Shown: one piece after another, positions 6,209-46,213 of the stretch | Numbering within the stretch: position 1 is the first letter of the stretch | How the letters are laid out: each line of letters opens with the position of its first letter | Sequence record: PQ511146.1 | Strand: one strand, 5' to 3' | Source of the DNA: Escherichia phage NHEP1 | DNA: 64,000 nt | Program-made: the position numbers and the translations under genes | The notes under the pieces: generated by a model | Told to the model about the DNA's origin: nothing | Database searches by the model: none | What the model saw: only the letters and a program-made list of their open reading frames with translations

Positions 6209-6997
6209 ATGGGTCGAGCTAAAGAAACAAAACGCATGCGTGATGAAGCCAGAGAGGCTCGCAAATCTGATCGCCTGCGTAAGGCTGCTGAGAAATTTGC
6301 TGACGAACGAGAGCACACAGCTCCAGCTCTCCGACCAATGAACAAAAAGCAGCAAAAGTATCTTGATTATCTAGGATCGCGTAAGATTATTATTGTAAAC
6401 GGTGTGTTTGGATCCGGTAAGACATTCATGGCATCCGCATATGCAGGTGATCTTTTGCGTAAGAACGAGATTGATAAGATCATTGTTGCACGCCCTTACG
6501 TTCAGACAGGAAAGACTTCAGGGTTTAAACCTGGAAACGCAATGCAGAAACTGTGGCCCTATCTCCGAAGCATGATGGACACGATTTGTCGTCGTGTTGG
6601 CAAAGGTGCTTTTGCCGCAATGCTGGGAGATGGTCAGAACAGTCGTATCGAGATCTGTGAAGTTGAAAGCATTCGTGGTCGTAGTTTCGATGAGCGGTGC
6701 TTTGTCCTAATTGACGAGGCACAGCAAACTAACCCTGAAGAAATGTTGTCAATTATCACAAGGATCTCTGATCAGGCCACACTTGTAATCATGGGTGATA
6801 ATAGCCAACGTGACATCCCTGGTAAGTCTGGACTTGCATGGGTAACGGATTTCTTTACTCGTCATCCAGATCCTGAGGTTGGGATGATTAGCTTTGATAG
6901 CCCAGATGATGTCGTTCGTTCCGGGTTGGGTCGTCAGATTGCACTCAATCTTATCGAGGATCGTGCAAATCATATTTGGACCCCTGTTTCCGAGTAA
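6209..6997 (+). CDS. phoH: PhoH-like ATPase
   Basis: Walker A GVFGSGKT and PhoH-like downstream motifs; RBS AAAGGAG upstream. Confidence 0.9.
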   Translation: MGRAKETKRMRDEAREARKSDRLRKAAEKFADEREHTAPALRPMNKKQQKYLDYLGSRKIIIVNGVFGSGKTFMASAYAGDLLRKNEIDKIIVARPYVQTGKTSGFKPGNAMQKLWPYLRSMMDTICRRVGKGAFAAMLGDGQNSRIEICEVESIRGRSFDERCFVLIDEAQQTNPEEMLSIITRISDQATLVIMGDNSQRDIPGKSGLAWVTDFFTRHPDPEVGMISFDSPDDVVRSGLGRQIALNLIEDRANHIWTPVSE

Positions 6998-7042
6998 TAC
7001 AGAAGGGTGGTTATTCCACCCTTAAATATCTAAAACGATTAT

Positions 7043-7070
7043 TGACAAACAGATAAGTTTTAGGTATTAT
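7043..7070 (+). promoter_or_regulatory. Sigma70-like promoter TTGACA-N16-TATTAT
   Basis: Hexamers seen upstream of 7096 ORF. Confidence 0.4.
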
Positions 7071-7095
7071 CGAACAAAACAAGGAGAATGACAGT

Positions 7096-7407
7096 ATGGC
7101 TACAATACAAGAGAGACTGAATAAGATATACTGCCTATTTGTCTATAACGGTGAGACAATTTTGGCAAACAAAGGATACAAGAATGTGTGGATTAAGGAC
7201 AGCGGTGGTAACATAATCAACTTGGCGCTACTACGTGAGCGAAGACACCGATTCTTCACTGAGTCCCGTGTTATTGAAAGCAACACATTTTACAGAACAG
7301 GGGATAAAGTAATTGTTGACAATGACACGTGGTATGTGGTAGACTGGCAATCGTTGACCTGTGATGCTTCTGACAATTGTAAGTATTCCATGGTAATTGC
7401 TAAATAA
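7096..7407 (+). CDS. Hypothetical protein
   Basis: Track ORF 103 aa with AAGGAG RBS. Confidence 0.5.
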   Translation: MATIQERLNKIYCLFVYNGETILANKGYKNVWIKDSGGNIINLALLRERRHRFFTESRVIESNTFYRTGDKVIVDNDTWYVVDWQSLTCDASDNCKYSMVIAK

Positions 7408-7468
7408 AGGCAAATGAGAATCAGGTTTAAATAGATCGCTTTTAACTTTCCAACATTAAGGACCTCAC

Positions 7469-8518
7469 ATGAATTTAACACCTCGCAGCACCATGGTACA
7501 CGGCATGAAAGAAAAACAGAACGGCTTCGAACCGATGAGTAATAAAATGTTTGGTATGCCTGGTGGTATTATGGAAACATACAGCTACCCAACGCCAGTT
7601 GTTGACCACGTGCTTTATATTGACGATCTTGAGGATTTGCAGGATCATATGTCCCGTTTGCAAACAATTCGTATGGCACAGCCGGAAGAAAGTATCCGTG
7701 TAATTGTTAACAGCCCTGGTGGTTGCGTCCACATTGCCATGGCGTATTTGCAGGCATTCCGCGAGTCTCAGGCAAGCGTTGTTGTACACGCTGAAGGGAT
7801 GTGCTGCTCAGCAGGAACAATCTTATGGCTGGGTTGCAAAGAACGAACTGTGGCTCCGGACACAGAGTTTATGTTCCACTACTATCAAGGTGGCACCTAT
7901 GGCAACGGTGTGAACATGAATACTCAGGTCAACTACTGGAAGAAACGTTTTGAACGCCTGATCGAAAAATACTACGGTGGGGTTCTGACAGAAGATGAGA
8001 TCGCATCCATCACGGCTGGTGGAGAAGTGTGGTTGGATGGAGAAGAGCTGGCAGCTCGAACTGGTGCTATCATTCTGGACGATGAAAACATTCAGCGCAT
8101 TCAGAATGGGCAGAAACCGAAAAAGCTTTTGGCAAAAAGTGATGAAGAAGGTGTGCTAGGCGAAGCAGGCCTGCCAGAGATTCACCAATGCACATCTCTG
8201 GACGAGCTGGTTCACGCTGTTGAGTCTGCAAAAGCAAATGGTATGAAAGGTGATGTTCACACTGTGTTCCTGAATCTGCAGATGGAGAGTGGTGAGACCG
8301 TTAAGATTGCACTGGGTGAGATTACCTCGGAAGATCTGCAGCGATTCTCTGTGGTAGAGCTTCAGGACATTTTGTCCCAATTGAAAACCACCCTGAACGG
8401 AGGTGAAGAAGTTCAGGTTAAAGATAAGACCCGCAAGCGTCTGGTGGACAATATTATTAAAACAGCAAAAGAGCTCAATGAAAAAATCCTGGGCGCAGGA
8501 ATTATCGAAGAAGCTTAA
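7469..8518 (+). CDS. ClpP-family serine peptidase-like protein with C-terminal extension
   Basis: VNSPGG motif, candidate Ser in MCCSAG and His in MFHYYQGG spaced as in ClpP. Confidence 0.65.
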   Translation: MNLTPRSTMVHGMKEKQNGFEPMSNKMFGMPGGIMETYSYPTPVVDHVLYIDDLEDLQDHMSRLQTIRMAQPEESIRVIVNSPGGCVHIAMAYLQAFRESQASVVVHAEGMCCSAGTILWLGCKERTVAPDTEFMFHYYQGGTYGNGVNMNTQVNYWKKRFERLIEKYYGGVLTEDEIASITAGGEVWLDGEELAARTGAIILDDENIQRIQNGQKPKKLLAKSDEEGVLGEAGLPEIHQCTSLDELVHAVESAKANGMKGDVHTVFLNLQMESGETVKIALGEITSEDLQRFSVVELQDILSQLKTTLNGGEEVQVKDKTRKRLVDNIIKTAKELNEKILGAGIIEEA

Positions 8519-12048: not shown

Positions 12049-12396
12049 ATGTCAAAGATTAAATCGATATTAATGTGGGTGTCTGTTGTAGCTTTTGTAG
12101 GATACTGGACTTGGGAAACTGAATTAAAAGATATTGGGTATACCAGCCTTGAGAGTAAGGCGTGCATTGGCATAACCGATGCATTCAGGCAGAATGCTAT
12201 GGATCACGAATGTGTCGATGCAGATATAGATGAGAAACTGTCTAAGGACAAAGATTTTTACCATGGTCATGCCTTGCTTGATAGTGGTGACACTGTAGAA
12301 TTCTGGTCGTGGTTCCGTGAAGATGGGACAATAAAGACAGCAGTAAAGATTTCCAACAAAGAGTTGATGCTGTTGCAGCAGAAGGAGGTGCAATGA
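12049..12396 (+). CDS. Hypothetical protein with N-terminal signal/TM segment
   Basis: Track ORF 115 aa; AAAGAGG RBS. Confidence 0.5.
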   Translation: MSKIKSILMWVSVVAFVGYWTWETELKDIGYTSLESKACIGITDAFRQNAMDHECVDADIDEKLSKDKDFYHGHALLDSGDTVEFWSWFREDGTIKTAVKISNKELMLLQQKEVQ

Positions 12397-12680
12397 TCTG
12401 GATATCCTACGCTGATGGCACCATGCTGTATACTGCAGGTACTAGATATGAAGTTAAGGAGGACGATAAAAAATTTATCGTAAAAACATTTGACAAGGAC
12501 GACAACCTTTTGCTAGAATTGACTTACAAGGTTGGGGATGTATCTAGCATCCAATTGGATTGCGGTCATAAAGATAACCCGCTCAAGAAACCTGGGGTAG
12601 GTAAAGCTTCAGAAGAACGCCTGTCTCGTATTGCAGAAAGCGTTTCTGCACAAAAATCTAAAAAGGGGACTAGAAAATGA
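12393..12680 (+). CDS. Hypothetical protein
   Basis: Track ORF 95 aa. Confidence 0.5.
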   Translation: MIWISYADGTMLYTAGTRYEVKEDDKKFIVKTFDKDDNLLLELTYKVGDVSSIQLDCGHKDNPLKKPGVGKASEERLSRIAESVSAQKSKKGTRK

Positions 12681-18518: not shown

Positions 18519-18659
18519 ATGACTGATTTTACTGAAGCTTTAATGATGGCCTTATCTGTTTTAGCGCTATCGGTGTGTTTTGGGGCGTTATTCACATCTC
18601 TGGTTAAAGTTTTACATACCATATTCTCACCCAAGGAGCACAGTAATGACGAAGATTGA
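18519..18659 (+). CDS. Hydrophobic micro-protein (46 aa)
   Basis: GAGGTGAGGA RBS; overlaps next gene by 14 nt; C-terminus HSNDED resembles 11239 ORF C-terminus SNDKK. Confidence 0.35.
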   Translation: MTDFTEALMMALSVLALSVCFGALFTSLVKVLHTIFSPKEHSNDED

Positions 18660-18897
18660 CTTAAATGCTGGCGACCATGTTGTTGTCAAATGCATCGGGG
18701 ATTATCTTGGATTCACAATCGGCAATACTTACGAGGCAGTGGTGGCGAAGGTTTATCATGATAAAGTCCTCAGCCTTGTATTTGACTGCGATGATGACGG
18801 AGATGACCGTTACGTCTGTGAGGTGCTGGCACGTGACGATAGTGAAGACCAAAAATTCCTGGTTATTGAACTGAACGGTATTTTTGTAGAACGTTAA
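18646..18897 (+). CDS. Hypothetical protein
   Basis: ATG 18646 with AAGGAG RBS; track start is upstream alternative codon. Confidence 0.5.
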   Translation: MTKIDLNAGDHVVVKCIGDYLGFTIGNTYEAVVAKVYHDKVLSLVFDCDDDGDDRYVCEVLARDDSEDQKFLVIELNGIFVER

Positions 18898-36338: not shown

Positions 36339-36878
36339 TCAACACTCTTTGTACTCCACCACGATAATATCTATATCAAAAGTGGCAAGGTTAATAATGT
36401 CCTCTACATGTTCCCACTTCAAACCGCCTATGCCGCACCCGATCTTAGGGATGTAGAATGGTAAAATCGACCCCTCAAATACTTCATTGACTCGCTCAAA
36501 TCCTTTCAGTATTGAGAAATATTCAGCATTAGGCCCTGGGTAGAACTGAGTATACAGATTTATTCCGTAGACAATACCTCTCGGAGATAAGTGCTCCCAG
36601 CGGGAGAACGCGCCCAGTTTACTTAGGCAACCGTGCATAGTCATTTTATCAGCTTCCAATGCTTGAGGGAACTCACGGGCAATCTGTTTTGCTACACCCT
36701 TACCCATTGTGTGGAAGCAGTTACAACCGTGGATCAGGTGACCATCACCGCTCTTAAAAAGGGAGATTAAATCTCCCTCTACAGTATCAATAATCACGAT
36801 ATTCCAGCTCCTCTTCCACAATTTCAAAAAACTCAGTCCAGCACTGTGGCATATTGGAGTTACCGAAGTGGCTTTCAT
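36339..36878 (-). CDS. Macro-domain-like protein (putative ADP-ribose binding/processing)
   Basis: GDLI...HGCNC...MGKGVAKQI and later GCGIGG glycine-rich motif, in the order expected for macro domains. Confidence 0.5.
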   Translation of the reverse strand: MKATSVTPICHSAGLSFLKLWKRSWNIVIIDTVEGDLISLFKSGDGHLIHGCNCFHTMGKGVAKQIAREFPQALEADKMTMHGCLSKLGAFSRWEHLSPRGIVYGINLYTQFYPGPNAEYFSILKGFERVNEVFEGSILPFYIPKIGCGIGGLKWEHVEDIINLATFDIDIIVVEYKEC

Positions 36879-39277: not shown

Positions 39278-39753
39278 TATTTATCTCCTTGTTCTTCGTT
39301 AGTGTTTGCCGTGTGTGCAAACCCTGCTTGAATTAATTTGTCCTGAACTTGAGCCAACAGGCCCATTGCAAAACTTGTGGTCCCAGAGAGGGCCATCAGC
39401 ATATCTCGTTGTTGAGCTACCCAACCTAAGGCATAGTCCAAACGACGATATTTTTCTTCTTCACGCAGAGCCTGGAATAATTGTTCAGCCTCTGGCTGTT
39501 GTGTAAGCTCCTGAAGTCTTCCCATGAAAGAAGAAAGCACTAGCAGAAGAGACACTTGATCTTTACTTAACCCTAAGAAAAATTCTTGAGGTTGTTCTTG
39601 CTCGTTCATCGCAACCGACGCTTGATCGTTCATTTGTTCCATTATGGAATCTCCGATTTTATTTGAACAACATAGAAGGAGACACCATTTTAGCATCTCC
39701 TTCTGCAAATTACAACAGGTATTTGTTAGCCAATTACTTCGAAAGTACCCCAA
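39277..39753 (-). CDS. Hypothetical protein
   Basis: Track ORF 158 aa. Confidence 0.5.
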   Translation of the reverse strand: MGYFRSNWLTNTCCNLQKEMLKWCLLLCCSNKIGDSIMEQMNDQASVAMNEQEQPQEFFLGLSKDQVSLLLVLSSFMGRLQELTQQPEAEQLFQALREEEKYRRLDYALGWVAQQRDMLMALSGTTSFAMGLLAQVQDKLIQAGFAHTANTNEEQGDK

Positions 39754-39971
39754 CTCCCGTTCAGCAGGCAGGTGATCGGATCACCATCATCGTCAATTAT
39801 TTCAAAGTTTTCAACATCCAGAATATGGTCATCGAACACAATGCTCTTATCGCCACCACCAGAAATAACAGCGTATTCCTTACCTTGTGTTAGGTTCTGG
39901 CAACCTTTGCCGCCGAAACCAACTTCAACACAACGTACTTTCTGTCCTGCGCGAGCAACTACTCCAGCCAT
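39726..39971 (-). CDS. Hypothetical protein
   Basis: Track ORF 81 aa. Confidence 0.45.
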   Translation of the reverse strand: MAGVVARAGQKVRCVEVGFGGKGCQNLTQGKEYAVISGGGDKSIVFDDHILDVENFEIIDDDGDPITCLLNGSWGTFEVIG

Positions 39972-39988: not shown

Positions 39989-40309
39989 TTAATCGTCAAG
40001 TTCAAAATAGATTTTAACAGCTTCATCAAAGATTGGAATCCCGATGTTGTTGATAAGCTGCCAAACTACCATATCTTTTCCTGGATCTGGGAGAATGTCA
40101 ACCTTTCTCCATGCGCTATATATCCAGTTCGGACCGCCTTCTGCACTAACTGGTAGATTTTCACCAGCTTCTTGTAAATACTTATACAGCAAAAGGTATT
40201 CTGGGTACTCTAGAACACTGTCCTCTGTAGTATATAGCAGTTCACGGTATACTTTCAAGAATCCTGTTGGGTTGATGTTTTCAGTCTTCATTTGCTGCTT
40301 CTCCTGCAT
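39989..40309 (-). CDS. Hypothetical protein
   Basis: Track ORF 106 aa. Confidence 0.5.
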   Translation of the reverse strand: MQEKQQMKTENINPTGFLKVYRELLYTTEDSVLEYPEYLLLYKYLQEAGENLPVSAEGGPNWIYSAWRKVDILPDPGKDMVVWQLINNIGIPIFDEAVKIYFELDD

Positions 40310-40685
40310 TCATCAGATCTGCCATAGCGTCACCAACGAAGAGGACAACCACGTCGTTGACAGCGTCAGCATCATCTTTATTGATGTTGCTGAATTTGGG
40401 GCACACTGCAATGACCATATAGACCCCGTTGCCCAACTGAACAGTGCGTGTAGTGCACATTAGTGTGGTGCTTGTGCCTTCTTTAAAGGCAAATCCTTGC
40501 AGACGTTCTTCCAGAGAGTCACCTGTGGATTTCAACAAGGCAAGATCGCCCAATGCGTAGGTAGTGTCCTCATAGGTCAGTCCAGAGGTCAATGTTGCCT
40601 TTCCATCAGAAACTATAATAACCCCATCGGCACCGTCAAGCTCAGAGGCTTCAAAGATATTAATATCCCAAATGTTTTTCATCAC
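40281..40685 (-). CDS. Hypothetical protein
   Basis: Track ORF 134 aa. Confidence 0.5.
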   Translation of the reverse strand: MMKNIWDINIFEASELDGADGVIIVSDGKATLTSGLTYEDTTYALGDLALLKSTGDSLEERLQGFAFKEGTSTTLMCTTRTVQLGNGVYMVIAVCPKFSNINKDDADAVNDVVVLFVGDAMADLMNAGEAANED

Positions 40686-41002
40686 GCTTCCTCGTCATCT
40701 AATGGGTTGAAGATTTCACCGAAGTATTCTAAGACTTCCAGCTCACGGGTGGTGCAGAAAACACAGTCCCCGTTGTCATCTTCGATAACGGCCTCTTTAC
40801 CAAGAACATCAACTTCAAATTCGTCGTTTAACAGAACGGAACCTGTGTAAACTTTATCTGCCGTGCAGTCCCGAAAAGCAGAGTCCTTCTCCAAGTAGTC
40901 TGGCTTAACCTTGGCTTTAATTCGTTGATATTGTTTGGTCATTGCTGTGGTCCCCTTTCGTTTTGATAGGGCCATTATATTAGGCCCTATCGCTATTGTC
41001 AA
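40682..41002 (-). CDS. Hypothetical protein (paralog of 41006..41260)
   Basis: Shared AF(R/K)DCT and DD(N/E)GD.V(F/W)CT motifs. Confidence 0.5.
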   Translation of the reverse strand: MTIAIGPNIMALSKRKGTTAMTKQYQRIKAKVKPDYLEKDSAFRDCTADKVYTGSVLLNDEFEVDVLGKEAVIEDDNGDCVFCTTRELEVLEYFGEIFNPLDDEEA

Positions 41003-41005
41003 GTA

Positions 41006-41260
41006 TTAATGCTCAGGTTTTACAAAAACTACTTCGTTAACAGTGCACCAGACAGAATCCCCTTCATCATCTTTAAAGGTAAGACACTGGGCCGAGTTTT
41101 CCAACTCATCAAGTTCTTCTTGTGATAAATAGGTCCCTTCTTCCAGAAGGGCTTTTACCAGAGGGTTCTCACAAAACTCTGCTTCATAAATTGCACCGAG
41201 TGTGCAATCTTTAAAAGCTCGGTCATTTGCAACGCATTCTGGCTTCAAAGTAATTTTCAT
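41006..41260 (-). CDS. Hypothetical protein (paralog of 40682..41002)
   Basis: Shared motifs with the upstream neighbour. Confidence 0.5.
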   Translation of the reverse strand: MKITLKPECVANDRAFKDCTLGAIYEAEFCENPLVKALLEEGTYLSQEELDELENSAQCLTFKDDEGDSVWCTVNEVVFVKPEH

Positions 41261-41335
41261 CTTGGCGGTCTCCTTAATTATTTAAAATCAACGCTCTGTC
41301 TGTGTGGGGTATCTTACATCTACCCCAACTTGTTG

Positions 41336-41734
41336 TCAACGACTATTTTCAATCATCCACCAAGGATCGAGATAAGTTTGTTGACTTTTTGCCCACTGGC
41401 AAACTTCATTGTACATCTGGATCTCTTTGTCCGTCAGTTCACGAATAGGCTCATCTATACCCTCATTTTTGTGGTAATCCCAGTCGGCATCGATTTCCCA
41501 CAACCATGACTTACGATCTTCACGTTTACGCACACAGAAGTCCCCAGGACGGCCTGCCAGTGCATTTAGGAACTCGTTCTCCGCTCGCTCCTGGAGAATA
41601 CTAAGGAGCAAAACGTTGGAGCATGACCGTAAAATATGCTTCAGCTCACAATCATCGATCTCAACTTCAATACGTTGCTTGACTGTGTGGGTACCTTTTA
41701 CTAACATTCTACCTCCTCTAGACGAACTCTGCAA
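41336..41734 (-). CDS. Hypothetical protein
   Basis: Track ORF 132 aa; consensus promoter upstream. Confidence 0.5.
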   Translation of the reverse strand: MQSSSRGGRMLVKGTHTVKQRIEVEIDDCELKHILRSCSNVLLLSILQERAENEFLNALAGRPGDFCVRKREDRKSWLWEIDADWDYHKNEGIDEPIRELTDKEIQMYNEVCQWAKSQQTYLDPWWMIENSR

Positions 41735-41912
41735 GGGTTGTGTTGTTCACTGCACCGCAGTAGATGGAGTATCCCAACCCGTTAGGGTGTAGAAACCACG
41801 GCACACCTTGATCATCCTTCACGTATACATCTCCATTTTCCGTAAAGGGCCAATACTCTTCTCCAAGGGTAAAATACCTACTCATACCTTCAGCCAGATA
41901 CTTTACTTTCAT
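41718..41912 (-). CDS. Small protein, DDxGxxW(F/Y)L paralog family
   Basis: KDDQGVPWFLHPNGLGYSIY motif shared with the next two ORFs. Confidence 0.45.
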   Translation of the reverse strand: MKVKYLAEGMSRYFTLGEEYWPFTENGDVYVKDDQGVPWFLHPNGLGYSIYCGAVNNTTLAEFV

Positions 41913-42136
41913 AGATCCTCTTCAACAGCTACAAACTTGGCAAGTAGGGTGGTTCCATAGATATGATACTCACCGTTTGCCAGATGGGAGATAAACCAGG
42001 CAACACCGTCCTCGTCTTCGATCATATTGTTTCTGCGATCCTCGTCGTAATAAACCTTGTAGACCTTACCTTCTTCAAAGAATGATAGGTCTGTCATCTT
42101 CTCTTCTACAAATGTCGCTTTAACCAAAGTTGTCAT
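41909..42136 (-). CDS. Small protein, DDxGxxW(F/Y)L paralog family
   Basis: DEDGVAWFISHLANGEYHIY. Confidence 0.45.
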   Translation of the reverse strand: MTTLVKATFVEEKMTDLSFFEEGKVYKVYYDEDRRNNMIEDEDGVAWFISHLANGEYHIYGTTLLAKFVAVEEDL

Positions 42137-42507
42137 TGATCTGCCTCCTTCTTGTTGAGCCGGAACACTGCAATAATAGCATTTCCAAGATGCAGTGTCA
42201 AATCATTTCCCAGATACCATAACATTCCACGGTCATCTTTAATGAAAGGGTAACAATCCGGTGCCTTCCAGACATTATACACTTTGCCGACCTGAAAGAA
42301 ATCAGGCCCTGTTGGAATTTTAGTACCGGGCCATACTTGGGACACCTGAACGCATTCTACCTGCATAATGACAGGGATAGTCATGGAGGTAAATGTTTTT
42401 GTTGGTTCTACTACCATAAAAGTCTCCTCTCTGTCTAACAACACTTCCGTGTGTTGATAGTTTACATTAGTGACAATCACCCCAGTTACGACCGCACAAG
42501 TATTCAC
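42133..42507 (-). CDS. Small protein, DDxGxxW(F/Y)L paralog family
   Basis: KDDRGMLWYLGNDLTLHLG. Confidence 0.5.
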   Translation of the reverse strand: MNTCAVVTGVIVTNVNYQHTEVLLDREETFMVVEPTKTFTSMTIPVIMQVECVQVSQVWPGTKIPTGPDFFQVGKVYNVWKAPDCYPFIKDDRGMLWYLGNDLTLHLGNAIIAVFRLNKKEADQ

Positions 42508-45500
42508 CTGTGATCTGGAACGGAACGCCCATCATTTTAGAAGCCTGCCAGAAGCAATGCACCACCATTTCGCCCACAGGGCTCCAGATAAGCTCAAGCT
42601 TTCCGTCATCATTCAAGATAGGATCGTATACCGTATTTCCATCCTTGTCAACCACTTCGTTTCCGTCCTCATCTTTGCGTGCCTTTTTGTACTTATGACC
42701 GTCGAACACATGAAGTTTAGCCTCTTGTTGGGCTTTAAATGTTTCCAGCTCTTCAATTGTGTCGAAGGTGTATACGGTTTTATACTTAGGTGTGTCAGGC
42801 ACTTGAAGCTGATATTCGTCATGGTAATAGATAATACGACGAACACCCTCATCATACCATCCACGCTTCACCATCTGGTGGTGCATGAGGATTCCGACCA
42901 AGTCGCACAACGATGCACCGCCATTTTGCTGATATGCATTAAGCAAAGAGTGTTTAGAGCGGGTCCAAATGGCATGCCCGTCAAAAGAGTAGATAAATTT
43001 CTTACCTGTTGCTTCCCAGAATTTCTCCAGATCCTCTTTACGCCCCTTAAGGCCCGGGTTGGCATCCCAGAGAGCATCAATTACTCTCTGTCCAAGTTCT
43101 GGAGAGATATCTAGCATATCTGCAACTTTATCTTTTTGTGCCCCGTACATAACCCCATATGTGACAGGCTTACCATCGTTACGGGAAATCTCCTTGCCTG
43201 CTACAGAAGAGTAAGCTTTGGCGTTATTACAGTTACCGCACACTGCCACTTTACCATTCCTTCTCACAATGATTGCTCCAGAAGGGACGGTAACGCAATA
43301 AACCAAAGAACCGCTCACCTCGACAGACTCTTTAGATAGTGTCAGCAACCCTGCTCTCTGTTTGCTACCAATCGTGATTCTGTGCTGTACGGAACGACCT
43401 TTTTTGTGAATCGCCACCGTATTATTCCGTAAACCACACTGAGTAGCCAGCGCAGACACAACCTCTACAGATTTCTTCCTGCACCCGGCCTGAGAGTAGT
43501 AGGCAACTTTTCCACCTTCGGAAGATACCCACCCGTCCCAGTTAGATAAAGAAGCTATAAACAGGTTTTTAGATTCTTTATCAAGGTCCATCAGGTTGTA
43601 GGTGAAATCCTTATTGCTGTCCAAAAACTCAAATACCCAGGACGGAACGTGGAATTGGAACCTTCTCGCCAGTAAGCCCCCTTTTGTGGTTTTCCCGCTC
43701 TGCTCTACATAACTAAGGCTTAGAGCAGAAAAAGTATCTAAAAGCGTTGCAACTTTTCTGCCCTTCCCGACCTGAATCCTGCACACGATGCTGCCGTCCT
43801 TATTTGTATGCAAGTGCCCATCATCGTGAATAGCAATAAGCAAATTAACCTGGGCAGGAGATAAGGTTGTATTCCCATAAAACTCTGCCGCATGGATAAA
43901 CCTTCTTCCTGAATTAGACCCTTTACCTGCTTTCAGGTCTTTTGCCAAATCTTCAAACAATTTATTGCTTCTGTGATCCACGGTCAGCATCCTGTGTTGA
44001 TCTGTAACCATAAAATCCACACTGCTGTTGTGGAAATGATACATATCCCCACAATAACTACGCTTAACGTAATTTAATGGAGTAACAAGGTTCATCGACG
44101 AGGTGTTGTGATCGTACTGGAACACCTGTGTTCCCGGATCAAGATCTTCAAACCTCACCCACCCTTTCTCCGTGAGAATTTGTGTATCTCCTGAATAACA
44201 GTGTGCATCGCCGTTACTTACAACATCATAATACAGACCGTTGTCAAACTCAAAGGCACCCCAGGCCCCGATGAGCTGCTCTAAGTTGGACCCGTCAATA
44301 CCGATCTCAAAGTATCCTGGAGGAACACCCCACAGACTACGCATCTCTTTACCCATAACCACTTTAGGAGATGGTTTAGGCATGTTTGCACAAATACTAT
44401 GTTTCTGTCTGGAAGTGTTTGTTAATCCAGAACTTTTAGCAGGAAGCTTGTGGTCAATCTTCAAACGTGGATGATTAAGAAGACCAGTATCAACCTTATC
44501 TTCCTTGATTGGATCAAGGACCGATCTGCGGTTTCGCAATGATAACCACAAAACGATATCTTTAGCCATCTCTCCGTTCAATTTTTCAAGATTCGGGCAC
44601 AGGTGTCCAAACGTATCTTTCAGTTGCGGAGAAGTAATAAGCGCTCTGGCTTTTCTACGTATCTTCCCAAACACTTCCTTTTTAATCCTTTCTGAGTTAG
44701 GGAAGCTTCGGAACTTATGCACAGTTGTCTGGAACTTGGCATCAGTTTTGTTCCAGAAGTTGATAATTAGATCACAATACTCTGACTCCAAAAGCTCGTC
44801 CATATATGCATATACTCGTGCATCAACATCTGCATCAGGTAAAGCTTTCTTCTTGCTGTCTTTAGTTACATCTTTAGTTCTCCACATTGTTGGGAGCCAA
44901 CCAGCACTGATCAGGTATCGCTTGATGTCGTCCTGATTGCTGATTTTCATAGGTATCTTGCAGTCAGGCATTCGCTTCTGCTGTAGGTCACTTATCGCCT
45001 GATCCATCAGCTCTTTAGGTAAAGGGTGTGGTGTAGAAGTTCCTTTGATATACCCCCTCAAGAAATCAGCCATCTTATCGGGGTCTTTACAGCCCATCTC
45101 TTCACACCATTTTATCCCCATCTTACTTACATCCCCTGTGGAGGTAAATGCTCGCTTAGGAGGAGCTTTGAACTCTAAAGCACTCATGTCCACAGGGTAG
45201 CCAAGCTTGTCTTTTAACCATTTCCAACCATTATTGGAGATTGTCCCATCTTGGTTAAACGGCTTTTCAGGGAACTTAGGCCGCTGAGACATTGATAACT
45301 CTTTTAAAGGAAGTTGTGGTTCAACACGATCAGCGATCTCTTTCATCCACGCATCGCAACGGTCACGTAAAGCAATAGCCCCATCTATGTCGAAATACAC
45401 CCCCTGTCGAGCCTGCAGCTCCATCAGGAAGTGCTGTAACATGCCTCGGCGTAATGCGTTCTTCCAGGTGATCTTCTTGAAGCCTTTCGGCTTCTCTTTG

Positions 45501-46213
45501 GCAGGATCGTACATAAAGTTCTGCATGTCAGATTTGCCGTAGAATACACCTTTTGATTCCGCTACCAACTCCTTCCAGAGCAACTCCTGGATGATAACGT
45601 CCTCGAACACACGATCCACATACTTCCACAGTGGAAGCTCACGCCAGTCATCGATTTGAACTTTCTGGTTACCAAGGGCATAGCCCCATGCCATAAGGCC
45701 ATGAGGCCCAACAGGCTGCATTTTCTTGGTAACTGGATTGAATACTGCGTCCGGACAACCTTTTGGCAAAGGGCGGTCAGGCCACAAGATTCGGCTCATC
45801 GCTAACGTATCAAACAGATTAACCGGGTGGTCGTTGATAGTCCCCATGCATTTAGGATCACGGAACATATCAAAATGAATACCGGATAATCTTTCCATCA
45901 GCATAAAGTCGTAACTGTAGCAGTTATGACAGTTCAAAGCCGTAGGTGACCAGTCTGAATTGCCTGTAAGCCAACCTTCCAACTCTGAAAAATCTGCTAT
46001 GCGAGCCTCAAAATCTGTATAAAGGGTCTTCTTTGCCAGAATGAAGTTCTTAGCTTTCTCCACATCCTCTTCAGAGTAGTGTGTGCGGTCATTTAGAGGA
46101 AGGAACAGCATAAAACGGTTCTTATTCAGCTCTTTAAACAAACCGCAGTGATAATAAAGATCTGGGTCTTCCAGCAGGCCAGAGGCCTCAAAATCGAACG
46201 ACCACATGCTCAT
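42467..46213 (-). CDS. DNA polymerase, family A (T7 gp5-like), intein-containing
   Basis: N-terminal exonuclease motif FDFEASGL and YHCG; motif A-like GIDGSNLEQ...FDNG; motif B-like NAK...YGVMYGA; motif C-like YYHDEYQ; AAGGAG RBS. Confidence 0.85.
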   Translation of the reverse strand: MSMWSFDFEASGLLEDPDLYYHCGLFKELNKNRFMLFLPLNDRTHYSEEDVEKAKNFILAKKTLYTDFEARIADFSELEGWLTGNSDWSPTALNCHNCYSYDFMLMERLSGIHFDMFRDPKCMGTINDHPVNLFDTLAMSRILWPDRPLPKGCPDAVFNPVTKKMQPVGPHGLMAWGYALGNQKVQIDDWRELPLWKYVDRVFEDVIIQELLWKELVAESKGVFYGKSDMQNFMYDPAKEKPKGFKKITWKNALRRGMLQHFLMELQARQGVYFDIDGAIALRDRCDAWMKEIADRVEPQLPLKELSMSQRPKFPEKPFNQDGTISNNGWKWLKDKLGYPVDMSALEFKAPPKRAFTSTGDVSKMGIKWCEEMGCKDPDKMADFLRGYIKGTSTPHPLPKELMDQAISDLQQKRMPDCKIPMKISNQDDIKRYLISAGWLPTMWRTKDVTKDSKKKALPDADVDARVYAYMDELLESEYCDLIINFWNKTDAKFQTTVHKFRSFPNSERIKKEVFGKIRRKARALITSPQLKDTFGHLCPNLEKLNGEMAKDIVLWLSLRNRRSVLDPIKEDKVDTGLLNHPRLKIDHKLPAKSSGLTNTSRQKHSICANMPKPSPKVVMGKEMRSLWGVPPGYFEIGIDGSNLEQLIGAWGAFEFDNGLYYDVVSNGDAHCYSGDTQILTEKGWVRFEDLDPGTQVFQYDHNTSSMNLVTPLNYVKRSYCGDMYHFHNSSVDFMVTDQHRMLTVDHRSNKLFEDLAKDLKAGKGSNSGRRFIHAAEFYGNTTLSPAQVNLLIAIHDDGHLHTNKDGSIVCRIQVGKGRKVATLLDTFSALSLSYVEQSGKTTKGGLLARRFQFHVPSWVFEFLDSNKDFTYNLMDLDKESKNLFIASLSNWDGWVSSEGGKVAYYSQAGCRKKSVEVVSALATQCGLRNNTVAIHKKGRSVQHRITIGSKQRAGLLTLSKESVEVSGSLVYCVTVPSGAIIVRRNGKVAVCGNCNNAKAYSSVAGKEISRNDGKPVTYGVMYGAQKDKVADMLDISPELGQRVIDALWDANPGLKGRKEDLEKFWEATGKKFIYSFDGHAIWTRSKHSLLNAYQQNGGASLCDLVGILMHHQMVKRGWYDEGVRRIIYYHDEYQLQVPDTPKYKTVYTFDTIEELETFKAQQEAKLHVFDGHKYKKARKDEDGNEVVDKDGNTVYDPILNDDGKLELIWSPVGEMVVHCFWQASKMMGVPFQITGEYLCGRNWGDCH
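43232..44200 (-). mobile_element. Intein (about 323 aa) with LAGLIDADG-like endonuclease motifs inside the polymerase gene
   Basis: Begins CYSGDTQIL right after GDAH; T..H block; LIAIHDDGHL and FIASLSNWDGW motifs; ends ...VAVCGN before +1 Cys; extein boundaries by alignment-by-eye. Confidence 0.75.

Follow-up and report, generated by a model that had tools for sequence, protein, structure and literature searches.

Escherichia phage NHEP1 carries, immediately downstream of its family A DNA polymerase gene, two sets of small tandem paralogs that are ancient and fixed; profile comparison links one set, and probably the other, to a wide, unannotated phage domain. The stretch analyzed here (hereafter the window) comprises 64,000 nucleotides (nt) of sequence record PQ511146.1 and comes from a Vequintavirus, an rV5-like myovirus of Escherichia coli. 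The 3.5 kb around the paralogous genes shares 98.3% identity with phage S127 BCL3 and has matches in 118 phage records. The genes of this arm lie on the minus strand and follow the polymerase in the order B3, B2, B1, X, A2, A1, E, D and C. The B set consists of B3 (42133..42417; 94 amino acids, aa), B2 (41909..42136; 75 aa) and B1 (41718..41912; 64 aa), and the A set of A2 (41006..41260; 84 aa) and A1 (40682..40942; 86 aa). The two sets are separated by X (41336..41707; 123 aa; phrog_6273), an unrelated gene. On profile evidence, B1-B3 and a further gene, C (39726..39971, minus strand; 81 aa), are single-domain members of the unannotated domain, which has the pattern FxTxGKxYxV...(D/E)DxGxxW; A1 and A2 probably belong to its superfamily as a derived branch. 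The reading that we favor, and consider reasonably probable, is that these are real, expressed-type Vequintavirus genes that come from ancient tandem duplication, contain the B-type domain, in the A set probably in derived form, and act as small binding modules.

Paralogy within the two gene sets

A1/A2 and B1/B2/B3 are true tandem paralogs, well beyond chance. In BLASTP comparisons, A1 matched A2 with E=2e-8 (29% identity over 77 aa) and B2 matched B3 with E=1e-6; B1 and B3 matched in the motif region alone (E=7e-4), and no B1-B2 match was returned. Smith-Waterman scores, evaluated against 2000 shuffles, gave z values of 11.9 for A1-A2, 9.4 for B2-B3, 7.5 for B1-B2 and 5.5 for B1-B3. All pairs of an A with a B protein (z<=1.2) and all pairs involving X, D or E were near background, with z<4. 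When each protein was searched with phmmer against all 457 open reading frames (ORFs) of the window, its top non-self matches were its proposed paralogs, and family-level hhalign comparison gave P values of 5.6e-8 (A1-A2), 1.3e-5 (B2-B3), 4.3e-5 (B1-B2) and 1.7e-3 (B1-B3). The two tandem paralog sets, as described in the initial annotation of this DNA, are thus borne out by the shuffle z values of 5.5-11.9, by phmmer and by hhalign, and the pairwise similarity inside each set is significant.

The sequence motifs on which that description was based also appear as invariant columns of the alignments. In the A family the invariant columns include D13, A15, F16, D18, C19 and Y25 and, further on, D64, D65, G67, D68, V70, C72 and T73; two Cys-Thr motifs are invariant. 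In the B family they are F20, G23, Y26, D41, G44, W47, A66 and F68, and in the alignment of B1, B2 and B3 alone the residues F, G, Y, D, G, W, G, A and F are invariant. The motif columns are invariant across orthologs too. A2 has an insertion of ~16 residues relative to A1, and B3 one of ~20 residues in the region of the beta1-beta2 loop. X showed no similarity to A or B by either Smith-Waterman or hhalign comparison.

Gene E (40281-40682, minus strand), the neighbor after A1, was considered as a third A-type paralog and rejected. The idea arose from P0052, a protein of a metagenomic Vequintavirus contig in which the N-terminal 65 residues of A1 are fused to the C-terminal part of E, and from a 90% hhalign match. 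The match was due to the presence of P0052 in the alignment; without it, P was 0.029. The fusion was caused by a deletion, with its junction at the CTTR common to both genes.

Age, conservation and selection

All five genes are present in the same order in the 8 of 8 relatives fetched, and the whole 1.8 kb is covered in 113 of 117 matching records. The ratio of nonsynonymous to synonymous substitution rates (dN/dS; Nei-Gojobori, against the eight relatives) was 0.01 for B3, 0.16 for B2, 0.10 for B1, 0.17 for A2 and 0.07 for A1, compared with 0.03 for the C-terminus of the polymerase. B3 is under the strongest constraint: its aa identity across the genus is 99% at a dS of ~0.55, and its dN/dS is below that of the polymerase C-terminus and far below those of B1 and B2. 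Ribosome-binding sites (RBSs), ATGA overlaps, conserved gene order and dN/dS values of 0.01 to 0.17 show that the five ORFs are real genes under purifying selection.

No repeats between paralogs were found at the DNA level, paralogous proteins share ~30% identity, and no copy-number variation was seen among the sampled relatives. From the absence of DNA similarity, the low protein identity and the constant gene set in relatives, it follows that the duplications are old and fixed: they predate the genus and are not recent. The initial annotation had taken the duplications to suggest adaptive accessory functions and had named copy-number comparison in related phages as a check; with an identical set and order of the five genes in all relatives fetched, no DNA repeats and purifying selection, nothing points to recent or ongoing adaptive duplication. 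What stands of its suggestion is that the genes are of accessory type and limited to one genus. An adaptive accessory function in the distant past is a plausible guess.

The genes are also carried by RudolfGeigy (bas52 locus tags), a phage of the BASEL collection, and the region was matched in other BASEL Vequintavirus phages in the DNA search. Rare variants exist: in P0056, from a metagenomic Vequintavirus contig, 11 residues of B3 are tandemly duplicated within the protein, and some entries of A2 are truncated, which may reflect sequencing errors.

Gene models and promoters

The gene coordinates first assigned to A2, B1 and B2 are unchanged; for the ORFs 40682-41002 and 42133-42507 the 5' ends had been over-extended. 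A1 most likely starts at ATG 40942, because the TTG at 41002, where the start had been placed, belongs to the -35 hexamer with which a perfect TTGACA-17-TATAAT promoter begins. ATG 40942 lies downstream of this promoter, and A1 is annotated as 261 nt in phages Murica, Gotham and Alma. B3 most likely starts at ATG 42417, where an RBS (GAGGAG) is located 6 nt ahead. The alternative GTG, at 42507, falls within the polymerase gene; phrog_12922 covers residues 31-124 of the long B3 ORF, in agreement with the shorter form, and most annotations use that form (285 nt in Gotham and others). B3 and B2, and likewise B2 and B1, overlap by ATGA; X starts 10 nt after B1 with a GGAGG site ahead of it, and A2 has the RBS AAGGAG.

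The sigma-70 promoter of A1 (40974..41002, minus strand) has perfect consensus hexamers, with 12 of 12 matches, and an 8-bp hairpin (ATAGGGCC / GGCCCTAT) holds its -10 hexamer in the loop. A2 is preceded by a sigma-70-type promoter, TTGACA-17-TAAGAT (41311..41339, minus strand), which has a promoter annotation in phage Gotham as well. The hexamers of both promoters are kept in 8 of 8 relatives fetched, and the spacers vary. Upstream of the polymerase gene (42467..46213, minus strand) a promoter-like site is found at 46354-46326, and B3, B2, B1 and X follow the gene without a strong promoter between. Judging from the sequence, these four genes would be translationally coupled behind the polymerase gene, and A2 and A1 would each be driven by a conserved host-type promoter of its own. 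The consensus promoters, with hexamers conserved despite variable spacers, point to early expression, and all five genes and X would be made early in infection. A search of the literature on Vequintavirus transcriptomics or early genes returned nothing relevant.

A wider phage domain superfamily

Pfam gave nothing above the gathering threshold for the A or B genes when the nine small proteins of the stretch were searched. Sub-threshold matches were obtained for A1 (DUF7127, 14.8 bits against a cut-off of 27.6) and C (DUF7244, 15 bits against a cut-off of 27, E=0.027); B1-B3 and A2 had no Pfam match at all. In PHROG searches each protein matched its own PHROG, and the cross-matches mirrored the paralogy and led to further PHROGs; phrog_4927, to which C belongs, and B2 have a common cross-match in phrog_10169.

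The B1-B3 alignment was used in an exhaustive profile search against 1.84 billion representatives, in which 15 matches were obtained at E<=0.001. The matches other than orthologs included P0060, P0063, P0064 and P0066-68, proteins of metagenomic contigs, each of which contains 2 to 5 copies of FxTxGKxYxV...(D/E)DxG. P0060 is encoded on a phage-like contig, among small ORFs and near Prim-Pol and DUF3310 genes, and P0067 has weak sub-threshold Pfam matches to DUF7244, the RimM PRC barrel and hSH3. An iterated hidden Markov model (HMM) was then run over the window, the fetched loci and the proteins of the profile search. P0059, P0065 and the low-complexity P0062, which are unrelated repeat proteins, were excluded from the iteration. 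P0059, onto which the first HMM iteration had drifted, was rejected as a family member: it is a bacterial surface protein, and its repeat is a different one. The iterated HMM recruited gene C (E=7.5e-4, then 1.9e-8) as well as domains of gp48 and gp79 of Escherichia phage Bas11. When C was compared with a superfamily profile built without it, hhalign gave a probability of 86% (P=5e-6). C is thereby a fourth member of B type, located ~1.7 kb downstream of the B set and outside the interval covered by the initial annotation.

By profile, B1-B3 and C match an unannotated phage domain that is represented by PHROGs 3523, 3249, 10169, 4927, 12802, 12623 and 12922 and by no Pfam family above threshold. 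They share with it the core motifs and the length of ~50-60 aa. Elsewhere the domain often occurs as 2 to 5 repeats within one protein, whereas here it is found in separate, translationally coupled genes. SH3-like barrels, DUF7244 and DUF2158 (YodC-like) are small all-beta barrels, as the B set appears to be.

Two further candidates were found in the window, both on the plus strand. The ORF at 18580..18897 (phrog_12851) has the motif FTIGNTYEAV...FDCDDDGD and a weak HMM match (E=0.046); this ORF and gp61 of Bas11 match the same phrog_25234 and phrog_12851 (E=2.2e-5 and 0.0083 for gp61). A weak match to the B-type domain HMM was also observed at 12393-12680 (E=0.006).

Predicted fold of B2 and its likeness to Gp54

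The AlphaFold2 model of B2, predicted from 18 sequences without templates, has a mean predicted local distance difference test (pLDDT) score of 90.4 and forms a barrel of six strands in which the beta1-beta2 loop is long (strands 3-10, 25-31, 36-40, 46-48, 56-60 and 64-70). It has a single strong structural neighbor, the fold of Gp54 of Escherichia phage Bas11 (JohannLBurckhardt; PDB 9AXB / 9ERV; Zhang et al., Nature 2024, PMC11578894), and B2 is accordingly predicted to be a Gp54-like barrel. The model was not copied from 9AXB, since that entry dates from 2024 and the prediction was made without templates. In a Foldseek search of BFVD, B2 matched many uncharacterized proteins of 60-80 aa from Drexlerviridae and other enterobacterial phages, with TM-scores of up to 0.83.

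Gp54 is the closest known system. It is a non-essential protein of 66 aa and unknown function that directly binds and activates the toxin-antitoxin defense protein CapRelSJ46; a homolog with 3 residue differences fails to activate it, and the fold was described as rare, without a close structural neighbor (PMC11578894). Bas11 is a siphovirus of the Drexlerviridae with a single copy of Gp54, whereas the phage studied here is a myovirus of the Vequintavirinae with three tandem copies and C, and no significant sequence relationship joins Gp54 to the B set. Activation of CapRelSJ46 is highly sequence-specific; thus, nothing about CapRel can be concluded for B1-B3.

Distribution outside the genus

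In a collection of 5.8 billion proteins, all homologs of B2 and A2 were from Vequintavirus, and full-length matches had at least 73% identity; the A-profile search added nothing beyond A1 orthologs. X has homologs in Seunavirus (E=5e-20) and Mydovirus (E=2e-15) and is the sole gene of the stretch detectable in sister genera. Downstream of the polymerase, no A or B gene was detectable in Seunavirus, Mydovirus, Certrevirus or a phi92-like phage. In Salmonella phage KE23 (Seunavirus), a DUF2158 (YodC-like) gene at 7489-7686 was observed directly upstream of the X homolog, at the place of B1.

In the phi92-like Escherichia phage UPEC06, three tandem small paralogs (6808-7941) lie directly downstream of the orthologous polymerase, as they do here. 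These genes (phrog_622) begin with M-E-(I/V)-G-K-T-Y and have an EDG turn; they differ in their length of ~120 aa each, in their PHROG and in not being recruited by the B superfamily HMM. The UPEC06 triplet may have expanded independently at this position of the genome.

Relationship of the sets and possible roles

A common origin of the A and B sets is suggested by comparison with the broad superfamily. Against its profile the A family gave an hhalign P of 1.4e-4, compared with 0.1 to 0.6 for the controls D, E and X, and in the alignment AF(K/R)DCTxGxxY falls on FxTxGKxY with the DDxGD turns also in register. The superfamily HMM places A1 third among the non-member ORFs of the window (E=0.036), over nearly the whole model, and A2 at E=3.7. 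The contrary view is that A and B are unrelated families, products of two independent duplications that adjoin, in which the DDxG(D) turn, a common beta-hairpin motif, arose by convergence. No direct A-B pair is significant (z as given above; hhalign P>=0.027 with Vequintavirus-only profiles), A1 and A2 were never taken into the B-derived HMM at the inclusion threshold in any iteration, and helices appear in the A2 model but not in that of B2. With both motifs in register and P well below that of the controls, we regard separate origins as a real but minority possibility.

Several points weigh against the favored reading as a whole. All matching PHROGs are labeled 'unknown function', and the link from A to B, with an hhalign probability of 52%, is suggestive. 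Among the A, B and C genes a usable structure model was obtained for B2 alone; that of A2, from a 15-sequence alignment, reached a pLDDT of 54 and is unusable. A profile of Gp54, built from the Bas11 protein and seven homologs, aligned with the B profiles in the expected register at hhalign P values of 0.03 to 0.045, which are not significant (controls, 0.085 to 0.16), and Gp54 belongs to phrog_7421, to which the B proteins have no match. The conservation of B3 and its coupling to the polymerase gene would fit a replication-linked role no less than a host-directed one. The structural likeness may itself reflect convergence on a small barrel, or an artifact of modeling, and not descent, in which case it would carry no functional information. 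B2 and Gp54 share 13% identity, their profile comparison is not significant, they fall into different PHROGs, and the Foldseek search of PDB with the B2 model gave no meaningful matches and did not list 9AXB; a PDB sequence search with the B profile likewise omitted 9AXB and returned 8w20 alone, at chance level (E=1.3). We judge this explanation of the likeness to be rather unlikely. The main functional rival is a replisome role: the B genes, and B3 above all, would encode small accessory subunits or adaptors that, like other small beta-barrel domains, bind to the family A polymerase, to the helicase or to DNA, and not to host targets. It is suggested by the extreme conservation of B3 and by the coupling. 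However, no B-like gene is detectable behind the same polymerase in Seunavirus, Mydovirus, Certrevirus or the phi92-like relatives, and these genes are therefore not part of a conserved replisome. Family members in Bas11 and on the metagenomic contig are situated among miscellaneous small early ORFs, and Pfam gave no match to a nucleic-acid-binding family. We consider such a role unlikely.

Under the favored reading of small binding modules, the five ORFs arose through ancient tandem duplication and became fixed across the genus. B1-B3 and A1/A2 may be stand-alone protein-binding modules, each engaging a partner from host or phage at an early stage of infection, and could serve host takeover or counter-defense. 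If Gp54 is a guide, they may also be seen by immune sensors of the host. A bolder proposal is that B1-B3 and C, and perhaps A1/A2 and the ORF at 18580-18897, constitute a diversified battery of Gp54-fold proteins, each of which binds a different host immune sensor or factor as an inhibitor, a decoy or an inadvertent trigger. We give this proposal an outside chance; if true, the Gp54 fold would mark a large unnamed class of phage-host interface modules across coliphage families, both stand-alone and multi-repeat.

The finding is in large part ordinary, as small paralogous ORFs of unknown function abound in the early regions of phages and the genes are already in databases: relatives' annotations of all nine, from B3 to C, read 'hypothetical protein'. 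The current work adds that the B set and C are tied to a broad unannotated phage domain and, by the model, to the fold of Gp54, the trigger of CapRel. The B family suggests that the Gp54 fold is common among coliphage early proteins, and that it is either part of, or similar to, a large domain family that lacks annotation and is found both as tandem genes and as tandem repeats. The B family thus offers a lead for the orphan structure of Gp54 and a defined candidate set for screens of defense-system triggers and inhibitors, and the results argue for a new domain family in annotation.

Other features of the region

This early arm also encodes, some kb further downstream, a Macro-domain protein (Pfam PF01661, E=2e-7) at 36339-36878 on the minus strand. 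The polymerase of NHEP1 has 1248 aa, compared with 925 aa in phage Murica, due to a single insertion of 323 aa (aa 672-994; 43232-44200, minus strand). The insertion starts with CYSGDT and ends with VAVCGN followed by Cys, and is intein-like; Pfam gave no intein or endonuclease domain in it at E<=0.001. In other Vequintaviruses the polymerase is split by HNH homing-endonuclease genes instead. Finally, 16 records named 'Campylobacter phage', with C. jejuni as the host, show ~90% identity to this region and may be mislabeled or contaminant genomes.

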